Virus record (IMG/VR): IMGVR_UViG_3300049844_000015
Coordinates: 1-39,727 of that record
Direction: 5' to 3' (one strand)
Length of the DNA stretch: 39,727 bases
Origin: a virus
Lineage: Duplodnaviria; Caudoviricetes
A program made the position numbers and the translations under genes. This document shows, piece after piece, positions 1,264 through 35,240 of this stretch. Positions within the stretch are counted from its first letter, which is position 1, and the number at the start of each line of letters is the position of its first letter. Under the pieces are notes generated by a model that saw nothing but the letters and a program-made list of their open reading frames with translations, searched no databases and was not told the origin of the DNA.

Positions 1264-2234
1264 TGCGCAAGATGACCGACAAGACCAGTGGCGAGGATCG
1301 CTCTGCATGGGTCAAGGCATACGAGTCGTCGTCCTATGAGATGGACCGTGTTGGCTCGGGTTCAATCTTTTGCGAAAACCTTGCTGTCAGCATCTACGGC
1401 AACATTCAGCCCCGTGTGTTCCGCGAGGCACTACACAACCTGAGCGCCGATGGTCTGGTCCAACGCTTCGTGCCCTGCATCTTGAATGGTGACATGACGC
1501 GCAGACCCACCGAAATCCCCGACTACCTGCTCAACAAGGATCAGTGGGAGCAGACACTGCGCATTGTGTACGCGCTGCCAGCGATGACGTACCAATTGAG
1601 TCCAGAGGCCAAGCGGGTCTATGAAGAGTTTCAAGAGTGGTACGACTTCAAACGCCGTGATGAGCGCATCTTGCAGTCCGACGACACCTACATGACAGCG
1701 TTCGGTAAGATCGAAGGCTTGGCCGGTCGCCTGATGCTCGTGTTCCACCTGATCGAGTCACCCTTTGCATTGCAGGTGTCTGGGGATCTCGCGCAGCGTG
1801 TGATCGAGTTGGTCAAGGGCTATGTGATTCCCGCCTTTCGTTATTCGCTGTGTGAATTGTCCGACTCGAACAACTTCGACATCTGGTTGAGGGATCACAT
1901 CATCCACCACTGCGATCTGCAAACGATCACGTTGTCCGAGATCAAGCGATCAGCTCGTCGTCAGATGGACAAGACCAACACCTGGCAACAAGATCAGATT
2001 GTCTATGGGGCCATGTACGCACTGGAGAAGGCACGATGGGTGATGCGCATGGATGATGGGTCCAAAGAGAACCAGCATCATGCTCAGTGGGCTATCAACC
2101 CTGCGATTGCTGAACAGTTCAAGGATCACCGTGCGGCTGTGATCAAGGCCAAACAGCGCCAGATGGACGAGATCTACAAACTCAGCACCAAAGAAAAACC
2201 CCGAGTCAAGGACTACGGGGTGTTAGGTGAATAA
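1..2234 (+). CDS. Bifunctional primase-polymerase / PriCT-2 / DUF3987-type helicase, C-terminal part (5' end at 38221; about 825 aa when circularised)
   Basis: The ORF is open from the window start. It has a PriCT-2-like stretch (SREEWVNVGMALH...LWDEWS...KY), a Walker-A-like GAPADKKT, a Walker-B-like LCALDEM and the DGLVQRF motif typical of DUF3987 proteins. Confidence 0.85.
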   Translation, partial: GLQGIDLQALYDANDAVIVDSGRAGHGKLLYKMPLGMALPSKKIIVNGVTAYELRCATANGLTVQDVLPPSIHPDTKQPYRWAGKGHWMRLPELPQPLLDLWHGLLEQDKVRTLATGDGIDASWDEIRTAIESISPDCSREEWVNVGMALHWAGTHTNQLDQALHLWDEWSKPSTKYPNEKEIISQWTSFKSDKATAVKLGTLFHIAKQHGWVRPQPDVREFFKAVESPDEPTSPMVDLRPRPPRLDIKLCPPVLARRAEEIGQTVGCDPLVPLFAGLAAVCGVADSRSRLELIKDFKVPPVLWLMTIGAPADKKTPGSAPMLAPLKHLETEDRPRYAKDFLEWEGKEAMHASSKKAFLEFSASPEAMLGGDQAPQVHDLPPQPVPLRITVDDVTSQKLVRLAADRPRGLLCALDEMNSWVRKMTDKTSGEDRSAWVKAYESSSYEMDRVGSGSIFCENLAVSIYGNIQPRVFREALHNLSADGLVQRFVPCILNGDMTRRPTEIPDYLLNKDQWEQTLRIVYALPAMTYQLSPEAKRVYEEFQEWYDFKRRDERILQSDDTYMTAFGKIEGLAGRLMLVFHLIESPFALQVSGDLAQRVIELVKGYVIPAFRYSLCELSDSNNFDIWLRDHIIHHCDLQTITLSEIKRSARRQMDKTNTWQQDQIVYGAMYALEKARWVMRMDDGSKENQHHAQWAINPAIAEQFKDHRAAVIKAKQRQMDEIYKLSTKEKPRVKDYGVLGE

Positions 2235-2254
2235 GGGGCTTCGGCCCCTTTTTT
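2233..2254. terminator. Rho-independent terminator between convergent genes
   Basis: AAGGGGC-TTCG-GCCCCTT followed by a T run. Confidence 0.85.
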
Positions 2255-2468
2255 ATCGGTCACCTCTTGCTCGGATTGATTCAGCTAGGTCTATGTTGTT
2301 TTTTGCATAAGCGTCAACCAAATCAAGAACAACCTCGCGCTCTTTAGCTGCTACCAGTTTGGCAAAGATTTCAATGTTTTTCCAATCTGCTTCTGCAATA
2401 AGTTCTGGATATATAAAAGCAGGTAAACCAGCTTCTACTGCTAGATTCGCAATTTCTTCTCTGTTCAT
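2253..2468 (-). CDS. Small hypothetical phage protein (FAKLVAAKERE family), 71 aa
   Basis: GAGGAG SD upstream; paralogous to 3882-4130. Confidence 0.75.
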   Translation of the reverse strand: MNREEIANLAVEAGLPAFIYPELIAEADWKNIEIFAKLVAAKEREVVLDLVDAYAKNNIDLAESIRARGDR

Positions 2469-2477
2469 GTCAACTCC

Positions 2478-2549
2478 TCATTTATAAAACATTGCCAAGA
2501 TCAGGCAAACCATTCCGAAACATAACAGGTCTTCAATGAACTCGGGCAT
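2478..2549 (-). CDS. 23-aa hydrophobic microprotein MPEFIEDLLCFGMVCLILAMFYK
   Basis: Translated by hand; GGAGG SD before the ATG; fills the gap between two neighbouring genes. Confidence 0.5.
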   Translation of the reverse strand: MPEFIEDLLCFGMVCLILAMFYK

Positions 2550-3066
2550 CGCGCACCTCCGTTGGCCAGGGTCCACGGATCTGGGTCATCTGTGGTGTGT
2601 AGTCAGTGCCTCCGGCTTTTTTGTAGCCGTTGTTCTTGCGCACATCGAGTTGGATTTGTTTCATCGCTGCCTTGGCTTCGGCTTTGCGCTGCTTCTCTTC
2701 TGCCTTGATTCGATCACGCTCGAGTTTGGCCTTCTTGCGCTCGAGTGCACGCTTTCGGCTCTCCTCGAGTCGCTTGGTCTTGGCCAGCTCACTCTTGCGC
2801 TGTTGAAGGGCTTCCTTCATGTCATAGCACTCTGAGTATTCCATGGGCTTGGGTGCACCTGCTGGCACTGTCACAACGCTCCACACTGCACGATACAGGC
2901 CGGTGGTGACCTTTTGCCAGTCGCTGATGTAGAACCCATAGTTGCGCCTGAGCGCACTGATCACGAGGTCCTGTGTTGCACCGTCAGCTTTGGAGATCTC
3001 GCGCACAGTCATGCCCTGTGGGTTGGCCAGCAGCAGCTCACGCAGTCTTATGCCGATTGGGTTCAT
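2533..3066 (-). CDS. Hypothetical protein with an N-terminal winged-HTH-like segment and a basic coiled coil, 177 aa
   Basis: LRELLLANPQGMTVREISKADG resembles an HTH; K/E-rich helix follows; ATGA overlap with the upstream gene. Confidence 0.6.
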   Translation of the reverse strand: MNPIGIRLRELLLANPQGMTVREISKADGATQDLVISALRRNYGFYISDWQKVTTGLYRAVWSVVTVPAGAPKPMEYSECYDMKEALQQRKSELAKTKRLEESRKRALERKKAKLERDRIKAEEKQRKAEAKAAMKQIQLDVRKNNGYKKAGGTDYTPQMTQIRGPWPTEVRDARVH

Positions 3067-10568: not shown

Positions 10569-12756
10569 TCCAACAGGAATGGTAGCCGCAGCCAACGTAT
10601 CGGCTGGCGGCGGCAAGAAGAATAGTCACCAAGACATTCTCTCAACAGCGCGTCACCGCATGGAGATCGCCATTGGTGCGCTCTCCGAGTCGCGTGAAGA
10701 CGAGTTGAACGACTTGAAGTTCTACGCTGGCTCCCCTGACAACCAGTGGCAGTGGCCTGCCGATGTGCTCGCTACCCGTGGTGCGGTGCAGGGTCAAACG
10801 ATCAACGCACGCCCCTGCTTGACCATCAACAAGCTGCCACAGCACGTACACCAAGTCACCAACGACATGCGCCAAAATCGTCCTGGCGCCAAGGTGATTC
10901 CAGTCAACGACAAGGCCGATGTCAAGGTTGCCGAGGTCTTCAACGGCATGATTCGCCACATCGAGTACATCTCCGATGCTGACGTGGTCTATGACACCGC
11001 TTGCGAGAACCAAGTGGCCTACGGTGAAGGCTACATTCGCATTCTGACCGACTACTGTGACCCCAACAGCTTCGATCAAGACATCAAAATTGGCCGTGTG
11101 CGCAACAGTTTCAGCGTCTACATGGACCCAACGATCCAAGACCCCACAGGCGCTGACGCCAAGTGGTGCTTTGTGACCGAAGATGTCCCCAAAGAAGACT
11201 ACCACCGCCTCTACCCCAACGCTGCACCCATCACAACTTTGCAATCGCTGGGCGTGGGTGACCAAAACCTGTCTCAGTGGGTTTATGAGGAAACAGTGCG
11301 CGTGGCCGACTACTATTACGTCGATTACGAGCAAAAACGCCTGAATTTGTACCCTGGAAACGTGACTGCGTTTGAAGGAACCCGCGAAGACAAGATGCTG
11401 CGCGAACAGTTCGGCGCTCCAAAACGCACCCGAATGGTCCAAAACCCCATCATTCGCTACTGCAAAATCAACGGTTACGAGATTTTGGAAGAAAACGTGT
11501 GGGCCGGCCAATGGATTCCCGTGATCCGTGTTGTCGGCAACGAATTCGAGGTTGAAGGCCGTTTGTATGTGTCGGGCCTTGTGCGCAACGCCAAAGATGC
11601 GCAGCGCATGTACAACTACTGGGTGTCCCAAGAAGCCGAAATGCTGGCTCTGGCACCCAAGGCTCCATTCATCGGCTACGGTGGTCAGTTCGAGGGCTAC
11701 GAAGACAAATGGAAGACCGCCAACACCAACAATTGGCCGTATTTGGAAGTCAACCCTGACGTCACAGACGGTCAAGGCGCCGTGCTGCCACTGCCTGCTC
11801 GCGCCCAGCCGCCCATGGCGTCTTCGGGTCTGTTGCAGGCCAAAGCAGGTGCGTCTGAGGACATCAAATCGACCACCGGTCAATACAACGCATCGCTCGG
11901 CATGGGTTCAAACGAGCGTTCTGGTAAAGCCATCTTGGCCCGTCAGAAAGAAGGCGATGTCGGCACTTACCATTATGGTGACAACTTGGCCCGTGCCGTG
12001 CGCCACGTGGCCCGTCAGCTCGTTGACTTGATCCCCAAGATCTATGACACCGAACGTATCGCCCGAATCATTGGTGAAGATGGCGAAACCAAGATGGTCA
12101 AGATCAATCCTGAGCAGCCAGAAGCCGTGAAAGAAATTATTGATCAAGACGGCATTGTGATAGAGAAAATCTATAACCCTGGCGTGGGCAAATACGATGT
12201 GGTTGCCAGCACTGGTCCAGGCTATGCTACCAAGCGTCAAGAAGCTCTGGAAGCCATGGCTCAGTTGCTCCAAGGCAACCCTGATCTGTGGAAAGTGGCC
12301 GGTGACTTGTTCGTCAAGAACATGGATTGGCCAGGCGCACAAGAGATGGCCAAGCGATTCGCCAAGACCATCGACCCACAAATCTTGGAAGACGGCGACA
12401 AGTCTCCCGCGCTGCAAGCTGCTGAACAGCAGATCCAAGCGATGGGTGCCGAGATGGAGCAAATGCACCAGATGATCATCGATGCAGGCAAGTCGATTGA
12501 AATGCAAGAACAGCGCCGCAAGGACTTTGAAGCGCAGGTCAAGGCGTTTGACGCTGAAACCAAGCGTTTGGCGGCAATCCAAGCCAGCATGTCGCCCGAA
12601 CAGGTCCAAGACATCGTGTTGGGCACTGTGCACGGCATGATTAGCTCAGGTGATCTGTTGGCCGAGATGCCTGGTCAAGACCTTGATGTTGGTCCGGAGA
12701 TGATGCCTGAGCAAATGGAACAGCAACCCATGCCACCTGAAGGAGCAATGCAATGA
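10561..12756 (+). CDS. P22-like portal protein
   Basis: 731 aa; RPCLTINKL, GLVRNAKDAQRMYNY, SGKAILARQ, GKYDV..TGPGY motifs; gene position. Confidence 0.93.
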   Translation: MADPTGMVAAANVSAGGGKKNSHQDILSTARHRMEIAIGALSESREDELNDLKFYAGSPDNQWQWPADVLATRGAVQGQTINARPCLTINKLPQHVHQVTNDMRQNRPGAKVIPVNDKADVKVAEVFNGMIRHIEYISDADVVYDTACENQVAYGEGYIRILTDYCDPNSFDQDIKIGRVRNSFSVYMDPTIQDPTGADAKWCFVTEDVPKEDYHRLYPNAAPITTLQSLGVGDQNLSQWVYEETVRVADYYYVDYEQKRLNLYPGNVTAFEGTREDKMLREQFGAPKRTRMVQNPIIRYCKINGYEILEENVWAGQWIPVIRVVGNEFEVEGRLYVSGLVRNAKDAQRMYNYWVSQEAEMLALAPKAPFIGYGGQFEGYEDKWKTANTNNWPYLEVNPDVTDGQGAVLPLPARAQPPMASSGLLQAKAGASEDIKSTTGQYNASLGMGSNERSGKAILARQKEGDVGTYHYGDNLARAVRHVARQLVDLIPKIYDTERIARIIGEDGETKMVKINPEQPEAVKEIIDQDGIVIEKIYNPGVGKYDVVASTGPGYATKRQEALEAMAQLLQGNPDLWKVAGDLFVKNMDWPGAQEMAKRFAKTIDPQILEDGDKSPALQAAEQQIQAMGAEMEQMHQMIIDAGKSIEMQEQRRKDFEAQVKAFDAETKRLAAIQASMSPEQVQDIVLGTVHGMISSGDLLAEMPGQDLDVGPEMMPEQMEQQPMPPEGAMQ

Positions 12757-13115
12757 ACGCCGCCCAATTTGTAGGTTTGCTGTTCTTGGGCCGCAATGTG
12801 GCCCACTCAGTACACTTGAACACCCGCAGCTACAGCAAACACAAAGCACTTGGCCACTTCTACGAAGATGTGATCGAGTTGGCCGACAAGTTTGCCGAAG
12901 CCTATCAAGGTCGCCACGGGCTGGTCGGTGCAATCAGCATCCCTGCATCGAAAAAGACAACCAACGTGATCGAGTTCCTCCAAGGTCAACTTGAAGAAAT
13001 CGAAAAAGGTCGTTACGATGTGTGTGAAAAGTCGGACACCCCGATTCAAAACATCATTGATGAGATCGTCGGGTTGTACCTCTCCACCATCTACAAACTG
13101 AAATTCTTAGCATAA
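12753..13115 (+). CDS. Ferritin/Dps-like four-helix protein (DUF5856-like)
   Basis: HSVHLNTRSYSKHKALGHFYE...DKFAEAYQG...NIIDEI...YKL pattern. Confidence 0.7.
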   Translation: MNAAQFVGLLFLGRNVAHSVHLNTRSYSKHKALGHFYEDVIELADKFAEAYQGRHGLVGAISIPASKKTTNVIEFLQGQLEEIEKGRYDVCEKSDTPIQNIIDEIVGLYLSTIYKLKFLA

Positions 13116-30315: not shown

Positions 30316-31728
30316 TCAAACTCCTTTTGATTGACGATATTGCTTGACCGCATTACGCAGTCCCGCTTGGGTTGTGGCCTTCTCATCGAGGGCCATTGCT
30401 TGAGCCTGATCCAAAGTAGCTTGCATCAGGATTCGGTGACACATGACTGGTGCACCTTGACCTTGGCGGCGCACACGAGCGTTGAACTGCTCGTACAGAT
30501 CCAAGGACCAGTTCAGACCGTACCACACCAGAATGTGACCATTCTTTTGCAGACCATCGATCCCGTGACCCATGGACGCAGGGTGGCCGATCATCAGGGC
30601 GCAGTCGCCCGTCTTCCAGCGGTGCATGGCGTTGGTCAACGAGGCTTCAGACTTGCACTCGGTCAGGTTGATCGGGCGCAGATCTTTGAATCGCTCCATG
30701 ATCCGCGCTGCATCGCTGCGGTAAGCATAGGCGCACAGGATCGGTGAGCCTTGGGCTTCGTCGATGATCTCTTCCAGTGCGTCGAGCTTCAGGTCGTGAA
30801 TGGGTTCCCACAGCGGCATACCGGCCACGGGGTACATGGCTCCGTTGGAGAACTGGAGACATTTGTTGGTCAGGGATGCCTGGTTGAACACCTCAACCGA
30901 GCTGCCGCTGTCGAGCTGCAAGAAGAACTCGCGTTCCATGGTTTCGTACTTGGCACGCAGGGCATCGGGCATCTCGATCTCGATGTTGTTCACGATCAAG
31001 TCGGGCAGTGGGTTGTAGTCCTCAGCCGACATCTCAAGGGTGATGTCACCGATGAGTTTTTTGATCGTGTCTTCGGTGTCCTCATAGGGCACTTCTTTGT
31101 ACGGCCCCACCTTGCGGTAGAAACGGGTGCGGAAGGCCGTTTTAGACGTGCCAAGGCGCTCACCCTTGTCCACCACGAGAAACTGCCCGTGCAGGTCCTT
31201 GTAGCCGTTTGACGCCGGTGTACCCGTGAGGCCCGTGGTCCAGTCAAAATGATTGGCGATCTTGCGGAAAGCCTTCACTCGATTGGTGGCGCTGTTTTTC
31301 ATCTTACTGATCTCGTCCCAGATGATTCCGTTGAACGGCATCGGGCGCTCTTTCTTGATGAAGTAGGTTTGCAGCGTCTCAGCCAGCCAGCCAAGGTTTT
31401 CGTAGTTCACAAGATATACATCGGCAGGACGCAGTAGAGCGCGGGTGCGCTGATCCCGTGTGCCGGTGACCATGCTGAACTTGAGGTCCTTGGTGTGCTC
31501 CCACTTGACAGCCTCTTGGCGCCACACGAGTCGGATCACACGGATCGGGGCCACGATGACCACACCGCGCAGGAACCCTGTTTTGATCAAATGAACGATC
31601 GATGTCAGGGTCGTGATTGTCTTCCCTAATCCCATATCGGCCCACATCATCGTGTGGGGCTTGGTGCACTGAAAATTGACCATCTTTTTCTGATAGCCGT
31701 GCATTAAATCCGGTGTCAATAACGCCAT
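30316..31728 (-). CDS. SNF2-like superfamily 2 helicase
   Basis: DMGLGKT, WDEIS, LTGTP, HPASMGHGIDGLQ and QFNARVRRQGQ motifs. Confidence 0.92.
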   Translation of the reverse strand: MALLTPDLMHGYQKKMVNFQCTKPHTMMWADMGLGKTITTLTSIVHLIKTGFLRGVVIVAPIRVIRLVWRQEAVKWEHTKDLKFSMVTGTRDQRTRALLRPADVYLVNYENLGWLAETLQTYFIKKERPMPFNGIIWDEISKMKNSATNRVKAFRKIANHFDWTTGLTGTPASNGYKDLHGQFLVVDKGERLGTSKTAFRTRFYRKVGPYKEVPYEDTEDTIKKLIGDITLEMSAEDYNPLPDLIVNNIEIEMPDALRAKYETMEREFFLQLDSGSSVEVFNQASLTNKCLQFSNGAMYPVAGMPLWEPIHDLKLDALEEIIDEAQGSPILCAYAYRSDAARIMERFKDLRPINLTECKSEASLTNAMHRWKTGDCALMIGHPASMGHGIDGLQKNGHILVWYGLNWSLDLYEQFNARVRRQGQGAPVMCHRILMQATLDQAQAMALDEKATTQAGLRNAVKQYRQSKGV

Positions 31729-32192
31729 TACTTTACCTTGTTGAGATACGCGAATTCACCATAGTGCTGAATCGCTGCATTGTTGTACGCAATTGCTGCT
31801 TCTTCGATCGTGTCAAAACGACCAAGATGTCCGTTTAATTGCGCTCTCCATTTACTTGTTGCTTTACAAAAGGTGACACCTTTGTACTTGTGAACTCTTG
31901 CCCTTGCATTTCCCAAATTTTGGGAATGGGTGCAAGGACGCAAGTTTTCAATTCTGTTGTCATCTCGCTGTCGATTGATGTGATCCAACTCGTTTACAAA
32001 TTCACCATGAAAGTACATCCAAACCAAGTGATGCACTCGATAAGATTTCCCGTCAACCACGGCTACACGGTAACCTTTGGGCTTTACTGTACCAATGACT
32101 GTGAACATGGGCGACCCTTTTACAGCCTTGGCGCGTAACAATTTGCCGTTGTCGTAGATGAACAGTTCGTGAAGTCGTTTTTGAGTGATCAT
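31728..32192 (-). CDS. Free-standing HNH-AP2 homing endonuclease
   Basis: YRVHHLVW...LDHINRQRDDNRIENLR...KWRAQL..HLGRFDTIEEAAIAY; AT-rich. Confidence 0.9.
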   Translation of the reverse strand: MITQKRLHELFIYDNGKLLRAKAVKGSPMFTVIGTVKPKGYRVAVVDGKSYRVHHLVWMYFHGEFVNELDHINRQRDDNRIENLRPCTHSQNLGNARARVHKYKGVTFCKATSKWRAQLNGHLGRFDTIEEAAIAYNNAAIQHYGEFAYLNKVK

Positions 32193-32680: not shown

Positions 32681-32892
32681 TTTTGCTCCTTGTCAAGTTC
32701 GTGCATTGCTCGGCGCAAATAAATTGCGTGGTCCAGTGATTCTTCGTATGCGTGCTGTAACCATTCTCTGAGTGACAGCGGGTTGTCTTTCACCGACACA
32801 CCATACTTTTTCAAACCAACGCGCTGCCTCTCGAAAATGTCAGCAGCAACCTTGTATTCAATGTCATCAGTGTTCACGACAGTCCCAAACAT
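32677..32892 (-). CDS. Small all-alpha NTP-pyrophosphatase-like (MazG-fold) protein, 71 aa
   Basis: RQRVGLKKYG...WLQHAYEESLDHAIYL; GGAG SD before the ATG at 32892. Confidence 0.65.
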   Translation of the reverse strand: MFGTVVNTDDIEYKVAADIFERQRVGLKKYGVSVKDNPLSLREWLQHAYEESLDHAIYLRRAMHELDKEQK

Positions 32893-33314
32893 AGCTTCTC
32901 CACTTCTCTGATGTAGTAATCGAAATCGACAGGCAGCTTGCCTGCATCCCTGATGTCGTTGCATGGCTGGACACCCCAACCAGACTCAACGCCAATCTTG
33001 CGCCACACCTCGGGCTTTGTCTTGGTAGGTGGCATCCACTTGAACAGTCGTCCACCGCCTTGTGCGATGTAGTAGCGTGTGATGTTTTGAAGCTGTGAGG
33101 TCACACCATCGTGTTCGATGGCCAGGTAACTGGATCGTGGAACCTTGGTGCGCAACATGAAGTCCATGATCTCAGGCCACTGCTCCACAGTCTCACGAAT
33201 CGGTGCGCCCTCAACCAGAACCTTTTCCGCGACCTTGGGGATCACGAGGCCACCGTGGTTTTGATGCCAGTCAAGATCCCACTCATAAGCACCTTTACGT
33301 TTTATCCTCGCCAT
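32874..33314 (-). CDS. Family-B DNA polymerase, C-terminal (thumb) fragment, 146 aa
   Basis: Begins MARIKRKGAY and ends DFDYYIREVEKL (PolB C-terminal YY motif); has its own GGAG SD and ATG inside the HNH gene. Confidence 0.85.
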   Translation of the reverse strand: MARIKRKGAYEWDLDWHQNHGGLVIPKVAEKVLVEGAPIRETVEQWPEIMDFMLRTKVPRSSYLAIEHDGVTSQLQNITRYYIAQGGGRLFKWMPPTKTKPEVWRKIGVESGWGVQPCNDIRDAGKLPVDFDYYIREVEKLCLGLS

Positions 33315-33832
33315 GTTGGTCGTGCTCCATGATTAGGGTGATACCCGATTAACATCTCCGCACCTTTACGTGCTGCGATCGCTTCATCGATTGATGGGAA
33401 ATACCCCAATGACAATCGTTCAGATTTATGAACATGTATGTAAGCATGCCATTTGTCTTTACTCTTATCGTAAGATACACCTGGTACTCCTGACGTGTTA
33501 TCTTTACGAACACCCATGTTGCGCAAATTATCTTGACGATTGACTAATCTCAAATTTGACCATCGATTGTCGGTTCGTACACCATTTATGTGATCTACAT
33601 CACAATCGGGCATAAACCCTTCCATGTAAACAAACGCTAAACGATGGACAACATAAGGTCTGCTATCGACATTGATTTGAAGATACCCAGCGATCGTTTT
33701 AGACTTGGGGACACTATTACAAGGTAGCCAGTTTCCAGCAAAACTTCGCCTCATGATGCGCTTCATTAACCCTGTGTCGGGGTCATAGTGAAGAAATGAT
33801 CGAACGTACTCTTTGGTTAAATTACTCATCAT
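33302..33832 (-). CDS. HNH-AP2 homing endonuclease inserted in the DNA polymerase gene, about 176 aa
   Basis: YDPDTG, HRLAF, VDHINGVRTDNRWSNLR, NTSGVPGV, LGYFPSIDEAIAAR; GGAG SD before the ATG at 33832/33829; AT-rich. Confidence 0.92.
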   Translation of the reverse strand: MMSNLTKEYVRSFLHYDPDTGLMKRIMRRSFAGNWLPCNSVPKSKTIAGYLQINVDSRPYVVHRLAFVYMEGFMPDCDVDHINGVRTDNRWSNLRLVNRQDNLRNMGVRKDNTSGVPGVSYDKSKDKWHAYIHVHKSERLSLGYFPSIDEAIAARKGAEMLIGYHPNHGARPTWRG

Positions 33833-35240
33833 CGTACTCCGCAATGTAGTTGTTGCAATCACGAATGAACATCCTCTTATACAAAGCCTCTTCCAGCTCC
33901 AAGCCAGTCAGCTCTTCCCACCACTTGCGCATCGTGTCAACCTGATGCTTGTTGGCGCGTGGGATGCGCACGGTCAAGCCGTCAGTGTTGATCTGGATCA
34001 AACGCAACCCGTCAATCTTGAACAACTGCTCGGCCAAGACACACAGCAGCAGTTGACCGTTGAGCGTGATCTTCATGGTGTACAGCGGGTCGTAGAACAC
34101 GCTGAACTGGTTGTTGCTGTCGCCGTACACACCGTTGAGCGCGAGCTTGAGCATCGCGTTCTCAGGGCTTCCCTTGGGGTATGTTTTGCGTTGCTCGTAC
34201 AAGTGCTGGTAAATGTCGCAGAACGACTCGCCTAGATGAGCAGGATAGAAACGATTAGCGATAGCCAGATTAGGGTAGTAAGAGCTGACATCCAAGTCAA
34301 CGATAACGTGATCGGCATCCGACTCAACAATTTCCGACTCAATAGAGCCATGAATACCGCCCAACCCAAATACAAAATCAAAACCATTAACACGCGCAGT
34401 GACATCTTCAAACACTCCCTTGGTTTCAGTGATCGCTTGACCCTTGAGCCAGTTGAGCACACGGGTGAACTCAGGCTGTGAGAACTCGATCCATGGCAGG
34501 ATCGCTTCACCCAGATTGATCACGGGTCGGCGTGTCTGGCGTGGCGTGCGACCAGAGGAGCCGTAGTCATACAACGCGACACCAGCCTCTTCGAGCTTCA
34601 TGGCGAAGTAGTCTTTGCCGATCTTGGTGTCGTTGTGGTTCATGAAGTCGCGCTGATACAAGTGAGTCAGTTGCTCACGGAATTTGATCAGGTCCAACGA
34701 CTTGTGATAGAACGCCTTGGTCTGCGACACGTCATGTTGGTTGTATCTCTTGAGCGTGGGGATCTGCTCAATCGTTAAATTCGTGCCCACCTTGAATGGC
34801 AAGTCTTCGATGTTGTCGCTGCGCATGTTGAACTCCAACACCTTCAGACTGGTGGCGCGTGCCTTGTTGTCGAAGTGATGGATCTTGAACAGGTCAATCT
34901 GTTCGATGCAGCGATCAGCAGGCTTGACGTTGTGCATCCACTTCTCGTCACCGTCTTGACCATTGATGATCGCCATGGCCTTTTGATACAGCGTCTGTGC
35001 ATCGCTGTGACCCATGCGGATCAGCGTGTGCAAAATAGGATAGTCAAAACCGATGTTGTTGAATCCAACCATGCGCCCACCATCATTCCGCAGACGGTCA
35101 ATGAAATCGACAATAGCGCGGCTATCGTTACGATGGTCACTAATCTCAAAAAGGAAAGTAATCGGTGCATCGGCGTGCTCCACAGCCATGGTGAAGACAT
35201 TAGGGAATGTTTCCAAGTCATAAATCCAGTCGTTACTCAT
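33822..35240 (-). CDS. Family-B DNA polymerase, N-terminal fragment (3'-5' exonuclease plus palm/fingers), 472 aa
   Basis: ExoI YDLET, ExoII FNNIGFD, ExoIII YNQHD; motif A DVSSYYP, motif B KLALNGVYG, motif C NTDG. Confidence 0.92.
   Translation of the reverse strand: MSNDWIYDLETFPNVFTMAVEHADAPITFLFEISDHRNDSRAIVDFIDRLRNDGGRMVGFNNIGFDYPILHTLIRMGHSDAQTLYQKAMAIINGQDGDEKWMHNVKPADRCIEQIDLFKIHHFDNKARATSLKVLEFNMRSDNIEDLPFKVGTNLTIEQIPTLKRYNQHDVSQTKAFYHKSLDLIKFREQLTHLYQRDFMNHNDTKIGKDYFAMKLEEAGVALYDYGSSGRTPRQTRRPVINLGEAILPWIEFSQPEFTRVLNWLKGQAITETKGVFEDVTARVNGFDFVFGLGGIHGSIESEIVESDADHVIVDLDVSSYYPNLAIANRFYPAHLGESFCDIYQHLYEQRKTYPKGSPENAMLKLALNGVYGDSNNQFSVFYDPLYTMKITLNGQLLLCVLAEQLFKIDGLRLIQINTDGLTVRIPRANKHQVDTMRKWWEELTGLELEEALYKRMFIRDCNNYIAEYDDE

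Follow-up and report, generated by a model that had tools for sequence, protein, structure and literature searches.

Family B DNA polymerases (PolB) that are made as two pieces are already known, as are phage genes split by endonuclease genes, including a GIY-YIG gene between PolB halves (PMC2988022). In phage 25, one of the T4-related Aeromonas phages, gene 43 is split into 43A and 43B with the GIY-YIG gene seg43(25) between the halves, and the two halves co-purify and are active (PMC2988022; PMC3061061). Natural two-chain PolBs are also present in Methanothermobacter thermautotrophicus and phage RM378, and the natural splits given in the available sections of PMC3061061 fall in the fingertip, in the palm, or between the N-terminal part and the palm. 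In Aeromonas phage Aeh1, described as a case of 'genes in pieces', a free-standing HNH gene, mobE, splits the ribonucleotide reductase gene into nrdA-a and nrdA-b without RNA or protein splicing, and the tails derived from the insertion are essential (PMC3045599; PMC2988022). In T4 the HNH gene mobA overlaps the upstream ORF and splits the conserved gene of the topoisomerase large subunit into two polypeptides; MobA and MobE nick DNA (PMC2988022). HNH-AP2 (IPA-HNH) and T5orf172 homing genes have been found enriched beside polymerase genes, and in the available sections of that study the interrupted genes that were tested were spliced and no intronless polB split is described (PMC10448857).

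The window, that is, the whole stretch of DNA analysed here, is an entire virus record of 39,727 nt with a completeness rating of 100%, and its polymerase gene is divided by an HNH gene (Table 1). Like 43A/43B it presents a family B polymerase as two genes with an endonuclease gene in between, but the cut in 43A/43B is in the fingertip while that of the window is at the base of the thumb, after motif C, and the two systems differ in phage group and in PolB clade. For 43A/43B it is unclear if the split was brought about by the endonuclease; here a homing footprint into intact alleles was found. As in Aeh1, a free-standing HNH gene splits a probably essential gene; the host gene is a different one, the tails are of two residues each, and the site is recurrent, whereas the available accounts describe Aeh1 as one case. 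The overlap of the HNH gene with the upstream ORF and the division of a conserved gene into two polypeptides are shared with T4 mobA, from which the window differs in the enzyme and in showing no sign of ribosomal bypass. Two-chain PolBs such as those of M. thermautotrophicus and RM378 resemble the window, whose site is not among the natural splits of the sections consulted, and the domain make-up and the position beside polymerase genes of the HNH-AP2 and T5orf172 families recur in the inserts described below. The system of the window would work like Aeh1 nrdA/mobE and gp43A/B yet is neither of them, since the site differs and docking tails are absent.

Table 1. Features of the split polymerase locus (positions in the window)
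Feature	Position	Strand	Remarks
PolB large piece, 472 aa	33822..35240	-	Exonuclease, palm and fingers; the last elements are the NNY strand, equivalent to KKRY, and a tail of two residues
Candidate co-conversion tract: the roughly 45 nt of polB that immediately precede the insert	33834..33878	-	Likely carried in with the HNH gene
HNH start signal, GGAG and ATGATG	33827..33840	-	Lies within the final codons of the large-piece gene
HNH endonuclease gene with weak AP2 domain, 175-176 aa	33302..33832	-	Overlaps both PolB halves
Small-piece start signal	33302..33328	-	Shares its bases with codons of the HNH tail; the HNH stop follows after another 10 nt
PolB small piece, 146 aa	32874..33314	-	KRKG strand and thumb; PHROG 1252 positions 512-647, stand-alone PHROG 15833

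Analysis of the gene content (37 ORFs scanned) revealed podovirus-type head genes, lysis genes, a primase/helicase and a single polymerase locus. The sequencing runs that match the window best are freshwater metagenomes, and the nearest cultured relative is the lake phage DSL-LC05, which has an identical gene order and a single polB of 617 codons. A gene of PHROG 858, 'starvation-inducible transcriptional regulator', lies immediately after the portal gene (12753-13115, plus strand). A second free-standing HNH-AP2 gene (31728-32192, minus strand) lies between a small nuclease gene and a SNF2 helicase gene; it belongs to a different HNH group and is missing at that place in DSL-LC05.

The large piece of the polymerase was assigned to PHROG 1252 DNA polymerase (E 5.9e-155) and carries the motifs DLETF, DLDVSSYYP, KLALNGVYG and NTDG; Exo I and motifs A, B and C of family B are present, the fold being seen through the model of an intact homologue, and a Pfam search gave no match of the window to the PolB family. 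Its C-terminal end reads RDCNNYIAEYDDE, followed by TAA. The HNH gene, which ends in HPNHGARPTWRG and a TAA at 33302, matched Pfam HNH_3 (E 2.7e-14; 53 bits, cut-off 24.8) with an intact DHING...DNRWSNL motif, and its AP2 domain scored under the cut-off (E 1e-5; 26 bits against 33.3). It is AT-rich (GC 0.42, GC3 0.37; polymerase halves 0.62-0.68). A search of IMG/VR with it returned no confirmed relative, and relatives were obtained via DNA patterns only; the closest, 81% identical, occupies the identical insertion site in locus L223, with a dN/dS of 0.056 between the two. The small piece and the C-terminal part of intact PolBs share 92% identity. At the junction intact relatives read NNYIAVYE-NG-KIKRKGAY, and both halves cover the two loop residues, so that none is lost and two residues are gained. 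A free-standing endonuclease gene here divides a conserved gene, leaving two ORFs. The preliminary description had placed the three genes at these coordinates, without non-coding bases at either junction, and had considered the halves contiguous; the positions and the overlap of the three genes with zero non-coding bases were verified on the sequence, and the alignment to intact PolBs is continuous, the two loop residues being covered twice.

The possibility of misassembled junctions had been raised in the same description. One contig of run X1 spans the whole stretch and run X2 bridges both junctions (either run may be the source of the record); contigs of the independent study X4, with 12-16 differences, bridge each junction, and those of another study, X5, bridge the C junction. 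An assembly artefact as the origin of the split is therefore extremely improbable: a chimeric look was seen in one relative, L015, against which stand the contigs of independent studies with strain differences and the identical layout in cultured phage genomes. The L015 contig, with a partial split allele beside an inverted intact allele, is itself probably a chimeric assembly.

An AlphaFold model of the intact homologue L002 (pLDDT 83.9) placed the cut in a β-turn of four residues that separates strands 464-469 and 474-477, and a Foldseek comparison matched this model to archaeal PolBs (E 5e-15). A weak profile alignment (E 0.015) put the cut at about residues 598-602 of KOD polymerase, between KKKY and TRGLE, and three intact alleles have seven extra residues in the same turn. 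On the modelled fold the cut lies after motif C, where a surface turn at the thumb base connects the NNY strand to the KRKG strand; motif order and the L002 model agree with the position after motif C and before KRKGAY that had been claimed from the letters. The separation of domains claimed with it held in so far as the thumb is on the small piece, but the cut is not a clean domain boundary, as the small piece begins with the KRKG β-strand. Whether this strand is counted to the palm or to the thumb is a matter of convention. It would have to pair anew with the NNY strand, which stays behind on the large piece.

Prediction of the two-chain complex, which had been suggested as a check, favoured assembly: the two window chains are predicted to bind with a complex score of 0.91 (best control 0.00), a score that shows fit and not binding, because the halves of split genes tend to pass such a test. 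The mark for this score is reached by 116 of 157 solved pairs and by 2 of 215 mismatched pairs. The runs agree in at least 97% of contacts with a partner pLDDT of 92, both alignments being built mostly from intact homologues, and the predicted interface rebuilds the hairpin, with residues 463-469 pairing with residues 2-10. The tails at the split are DE and MA only, with a few residues at most in relatives, and insertion-derived interaction tails of the Aeh1 nrdA type were not found on the window fragments or on relatives.

The split recurs at the site of the window and is not unique to this genome. Protein similarity retrieved 156 loci, scored as 146 intact, seven split and two (L028 and L094) truncated; L091 is also split. 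After collapsing, 114 distinct close alleles remained, 109 unbroken and five split at the window's site; these counts refer to a sample whose intact alleles are restricted to those near the window, and patterns demanding a start codon supplied most of the splits. Patterns with a start codon before KRKG gave 59 split loci among 75, some on contigs already seen, a search that is circular with respect to the start codon. The two viral C-side patterns contributed 44 loci (42 split, two in which no N end was found) and the metagenome pattern 31 (17 split, two truncated C-genes and 12 unrelated matches). An N-side stop pattern, blind to the C start, gave 16 loci, all of which have an in-frame ATG or GTG 2-3 codons before the KxKG strand, while ATG at that position was present in 0/109 intact alleles. 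No split without an intervening gene was found with these patterns, which are narrow. The GTDB genomes yielded 16 loci, of which the 11 with the motif all read continuous and five were unclassified.

In total, 51 distinct inserts of about 230 to 990 nt interrupt polB at this site, with zero non-coding bases in 31 and at most 60 in all 51. Clustering of the middle genes gave 37 groups at 90% identity and eight at 40%. Pfam searches on 18 of them gave HNH, GIY-YIG, T5orf172, DNA methylase and a weak radical SAM match, and the kinds of insert comprise HNH, two GIY-YIG groups, zinc-finger T5orf172, one DNA methylase, one radical-SAM-like gene and one 76-aa protein of unknown kind. The genes other than nucleases that fill the slot are the methylase and radical-SAM-like genes (L229 1775-2494 and L214 384-1370, minus strand) and the 76-aa ORF (L257/L258). 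The number of zinc-finger repeats varies among the T5orf172 inserts of L159, L160 and L165 (164, 233 and 296 aa). Of nine cultured phage records picked from match lists, two have an intact polB and seven, including JD001, KpV79 and JYSS3, are split here with an HNH or T5orf172 gene in between. GenBank labels some T5orf172 inserts type 2 secretion proteins, and the T5orf172 gene of JD001 is annotated as a short fragment although its ORF is intact. For JYSS3, a lytic phage, a burst of 230 has been reported (PMC12542494).

We then considered how a polymerase could be made from such a locus. If the insert were a cryptic self-splicing or trans-spliced intron, with its RNA core within the HNH coding sequence, one full-length polymerase would result. 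The tape measure and terminase genes of ICP1 are endonuclease-interrupted phage genes that proved to be spliced (PMC10448857); overlap between group I elements and nuclease ORFs also occurs (PMC11878797). Splice points following GAT GAT and ATG would formally fit the U/G rule and restore the length. In the scan of the inserts, however, a pair of P7 motifs, which we take to mark the group I core, was present in 0/51 inserts and in both control introns of the same polymerase family. These controls are inserts in the polB genes of phages Fpv20 (L161) and phi14:2 (L162), flanked by clearly non-coding sequence. The synonymous sites of the HNH gene are near saturation (dS 2.1 in the comparison with L223), without any frozen stretch, and shuffled sequences fold as well as the insert (z -0.45). 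Unrelated inserts, the methylase included, have no common sequence, and every split gains a start codon, which would be needless under splicing. Splicing is thus an unlikely explanation. The absence of a group I core, as first described, was borne out by the P7 scan, by the lack of non-coding bases to house a core and by the lack of synonymous constraint. The Rfam search proposed for the junction matched nothing relevant but was a weak test, as it missed both control introns as well. No group II intron was matched in Rfam, a search run without a positive control, and the insert is wholly coding. Four RNA-labelled runs (X19-X22) contained small shares of matching reads, from fragments of relatives only, which did not cover the HNH gene. 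The introns of Fpv20 (2056-3001) and phi14:2 (about 1930-2350), which lie at motif A, are group I-like and unannotated, and on visual comparison the GIY-YIG of the Fpv20 intron looks like that of L022, which occupies the thumb site without an intron.

An intein or split intein was rejected on account of the in-frame stops, the two added residues per fragment and the lack of any intein family in Pfam; in the earlier argument to this effect the in-frame stops, which are many, stood, but the frame changes were an error, N and C being in the same frame in the window. That shared frame speaks for a model in which ribosomes bypass the insert and make one chain, as they do in T4 gene 60, where the hop is 50 nt. 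The T4 mobA cassette is tied to such bypassing. A link of mobA with a split of this type in T4 has been described (PMC2988022). The gap in the window is about 510 nt as against the 50 nt of T4, no matching landing codon precedes the C start, and the relative frames of N and C differ among relatives with inserts of about 230 to 990 nt, all of which makes bypass a highly improbable explanation.

Translational restart, giving a two-chain polymerase, is the best reading, to which we assign a probability of about 0.8 on the basis of the sequence and the models. One unspliced message would carry N, HNH and C, and the halves would be translated separately: ribosomes finishing the large piece would start anew on the HNH gene and, after it, on the small piece. 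Analysis of the junctions agreed with the restart signals, each a Shine-Dalgarno (SD) sequence and an ATG, previously proposed for the HNH gene and the C-gene. The GGAG at 33840-33837 precedes the HNH ATGATG at 33832/33829, of which the second ATG is better spaced (7 nt). The ATG of the C-gene at 33314 stands 10 nt after a GGAG (33328-33325), and both are written into the HNH tail, the GGAG arising from Gly-Ala codons and the ATG from Thr-Trp codons. The SD of the window's small piece is modest, at the 11th percentile of strength among interior positions, and in only 22/39 cases is the C-gene SD in the top tenth. No significant hairpin was found over either start signal (z 1.5 and -0.2), and therefore no translational repression of the mobE type was seen. 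Scans for promoters and terminators in the window gave no more than in shuffled sequences. After translation the KRKG strand of the small piece would re-pair with the NNY strand of the large piece by strand complementation, and the thumb would pack back non-covalently, without extra docking tails, to give a working two-chain enzyme.

Most of the HNH proteins linked to the site group together (support 91), and in this group it is the NHGxRxxW tail that encodes the restart signal. The NHG/A-x-R-x-x-W tail was present in 17/25 HNHs scored at the site and in 0/15 of the 'elsewhere' bin, which includes two misfiled polB-site HNHs; selection by pattern favours the tail, and some site-linked HNHs are without it.

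Alignment of alleles L017 and L090 revealed near-identical HNH genes (2/519 nt differ) with identical flanks of 45 nt upstream and 23 nt downstream, although the preceding 300 nt of polB differ at 35 positions. Each compared with its intact neighbour, 16-17/45 and 11/23 flank bases differ, the difference being sharp only there; the N-piece proteins of these neighbours are 98-99% identical. Judged from the sequences, this pattern is the expected footprint of endonuclease-driven gene conversion; it belongs to a sister HNH, 52% identical to that of the window, and the window's own footprint is weaker. The last 45 nt of polB in the window have seven mismatches to the split alleles L167/L223 and 12 to the nearest intact allele, L060, which is the best match of the window for the next 180 nt upstream. 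In a tree of 100 large pieces, from which L015 was left out as likely chimeric, the split state changes at least 10 times, gains and losses not being told apart and sampling being uneven, and the window falls in a well-supported clade with seven intact alleles. The HNH enzyme likely nicks the unbroken polB of co-infecting relatives near the NNY/KRKG codons; repair would copy in the HNH gene with short divergent flanks, and the split itself would spread. In the L017/L090 flanks and in L159 conserved residues beside the insert are altered (MIRDVNNY to WILNVNNY, KGAY to KGCF/KGCY), possibly an escape of the carriers from their own nuclease.

The split enzyme might instead be crippled or dispensable, the large piece alone or the host polymerase being sufficient and the HNH gene spreading despite the cost. 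Splits are indeed a minority of the close relatives (5/114 distinct alleles), and cultured phages could in principle replicate with the host polymerase. The small piece, however, is intact, with a dN/dS of 0.09-0.10 even where all sampled clade members are split, cultured lytic phages retain it, and no other replicative polymerase was found among the 37 ORFs scanned, only the primase/helicase; this explanation is accordingly improbable. The dN/dS of the small piece is 0.04-0.16 in 11 split-split pairs and 0.05-0.13 in five intact pairs, values that speak for purifying selection and that partly reflect intact ancestors because some insertions are recent.

A wider reading, to which we give even odds, would join these observations: an old and widespread lineage of gene-splitting cassettes, with restart as a third route of tolerance beside introns and inteins. 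The conserved NHGxRxxW peptide would double as the ribosome-binding site and start codon of the thumb, so that thumb synthesis would depend on an open nuclease frame; each homing event would turn a one-chain polymerase into a two-chain one, and unrelated nucleases would have taken or retaken the slot many times.

A literature search, limited in coverage, found no account of the window's site, of absent docking tails or of the homing footprint. Term searches of papers on Jedunavirus-related phages found no discussion of a polB split at this site, and one such paper mentions HNH-split polymerases in Vequintavirinae. The known essential genes split by endonucleases amount to a few isolated cases; the intact and split alleles compared here, near-identical and with co-converted flanks of short length, point to a split that spreads by homing. 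The split also explains the doubled 'DNA polymerase' annotations in such phages. The base of the PolB thumb appears as a naturally tolerated split point, and since one genus has cultured phages in both states, the fission, its cost and the tail-free reassembly are directly testable.
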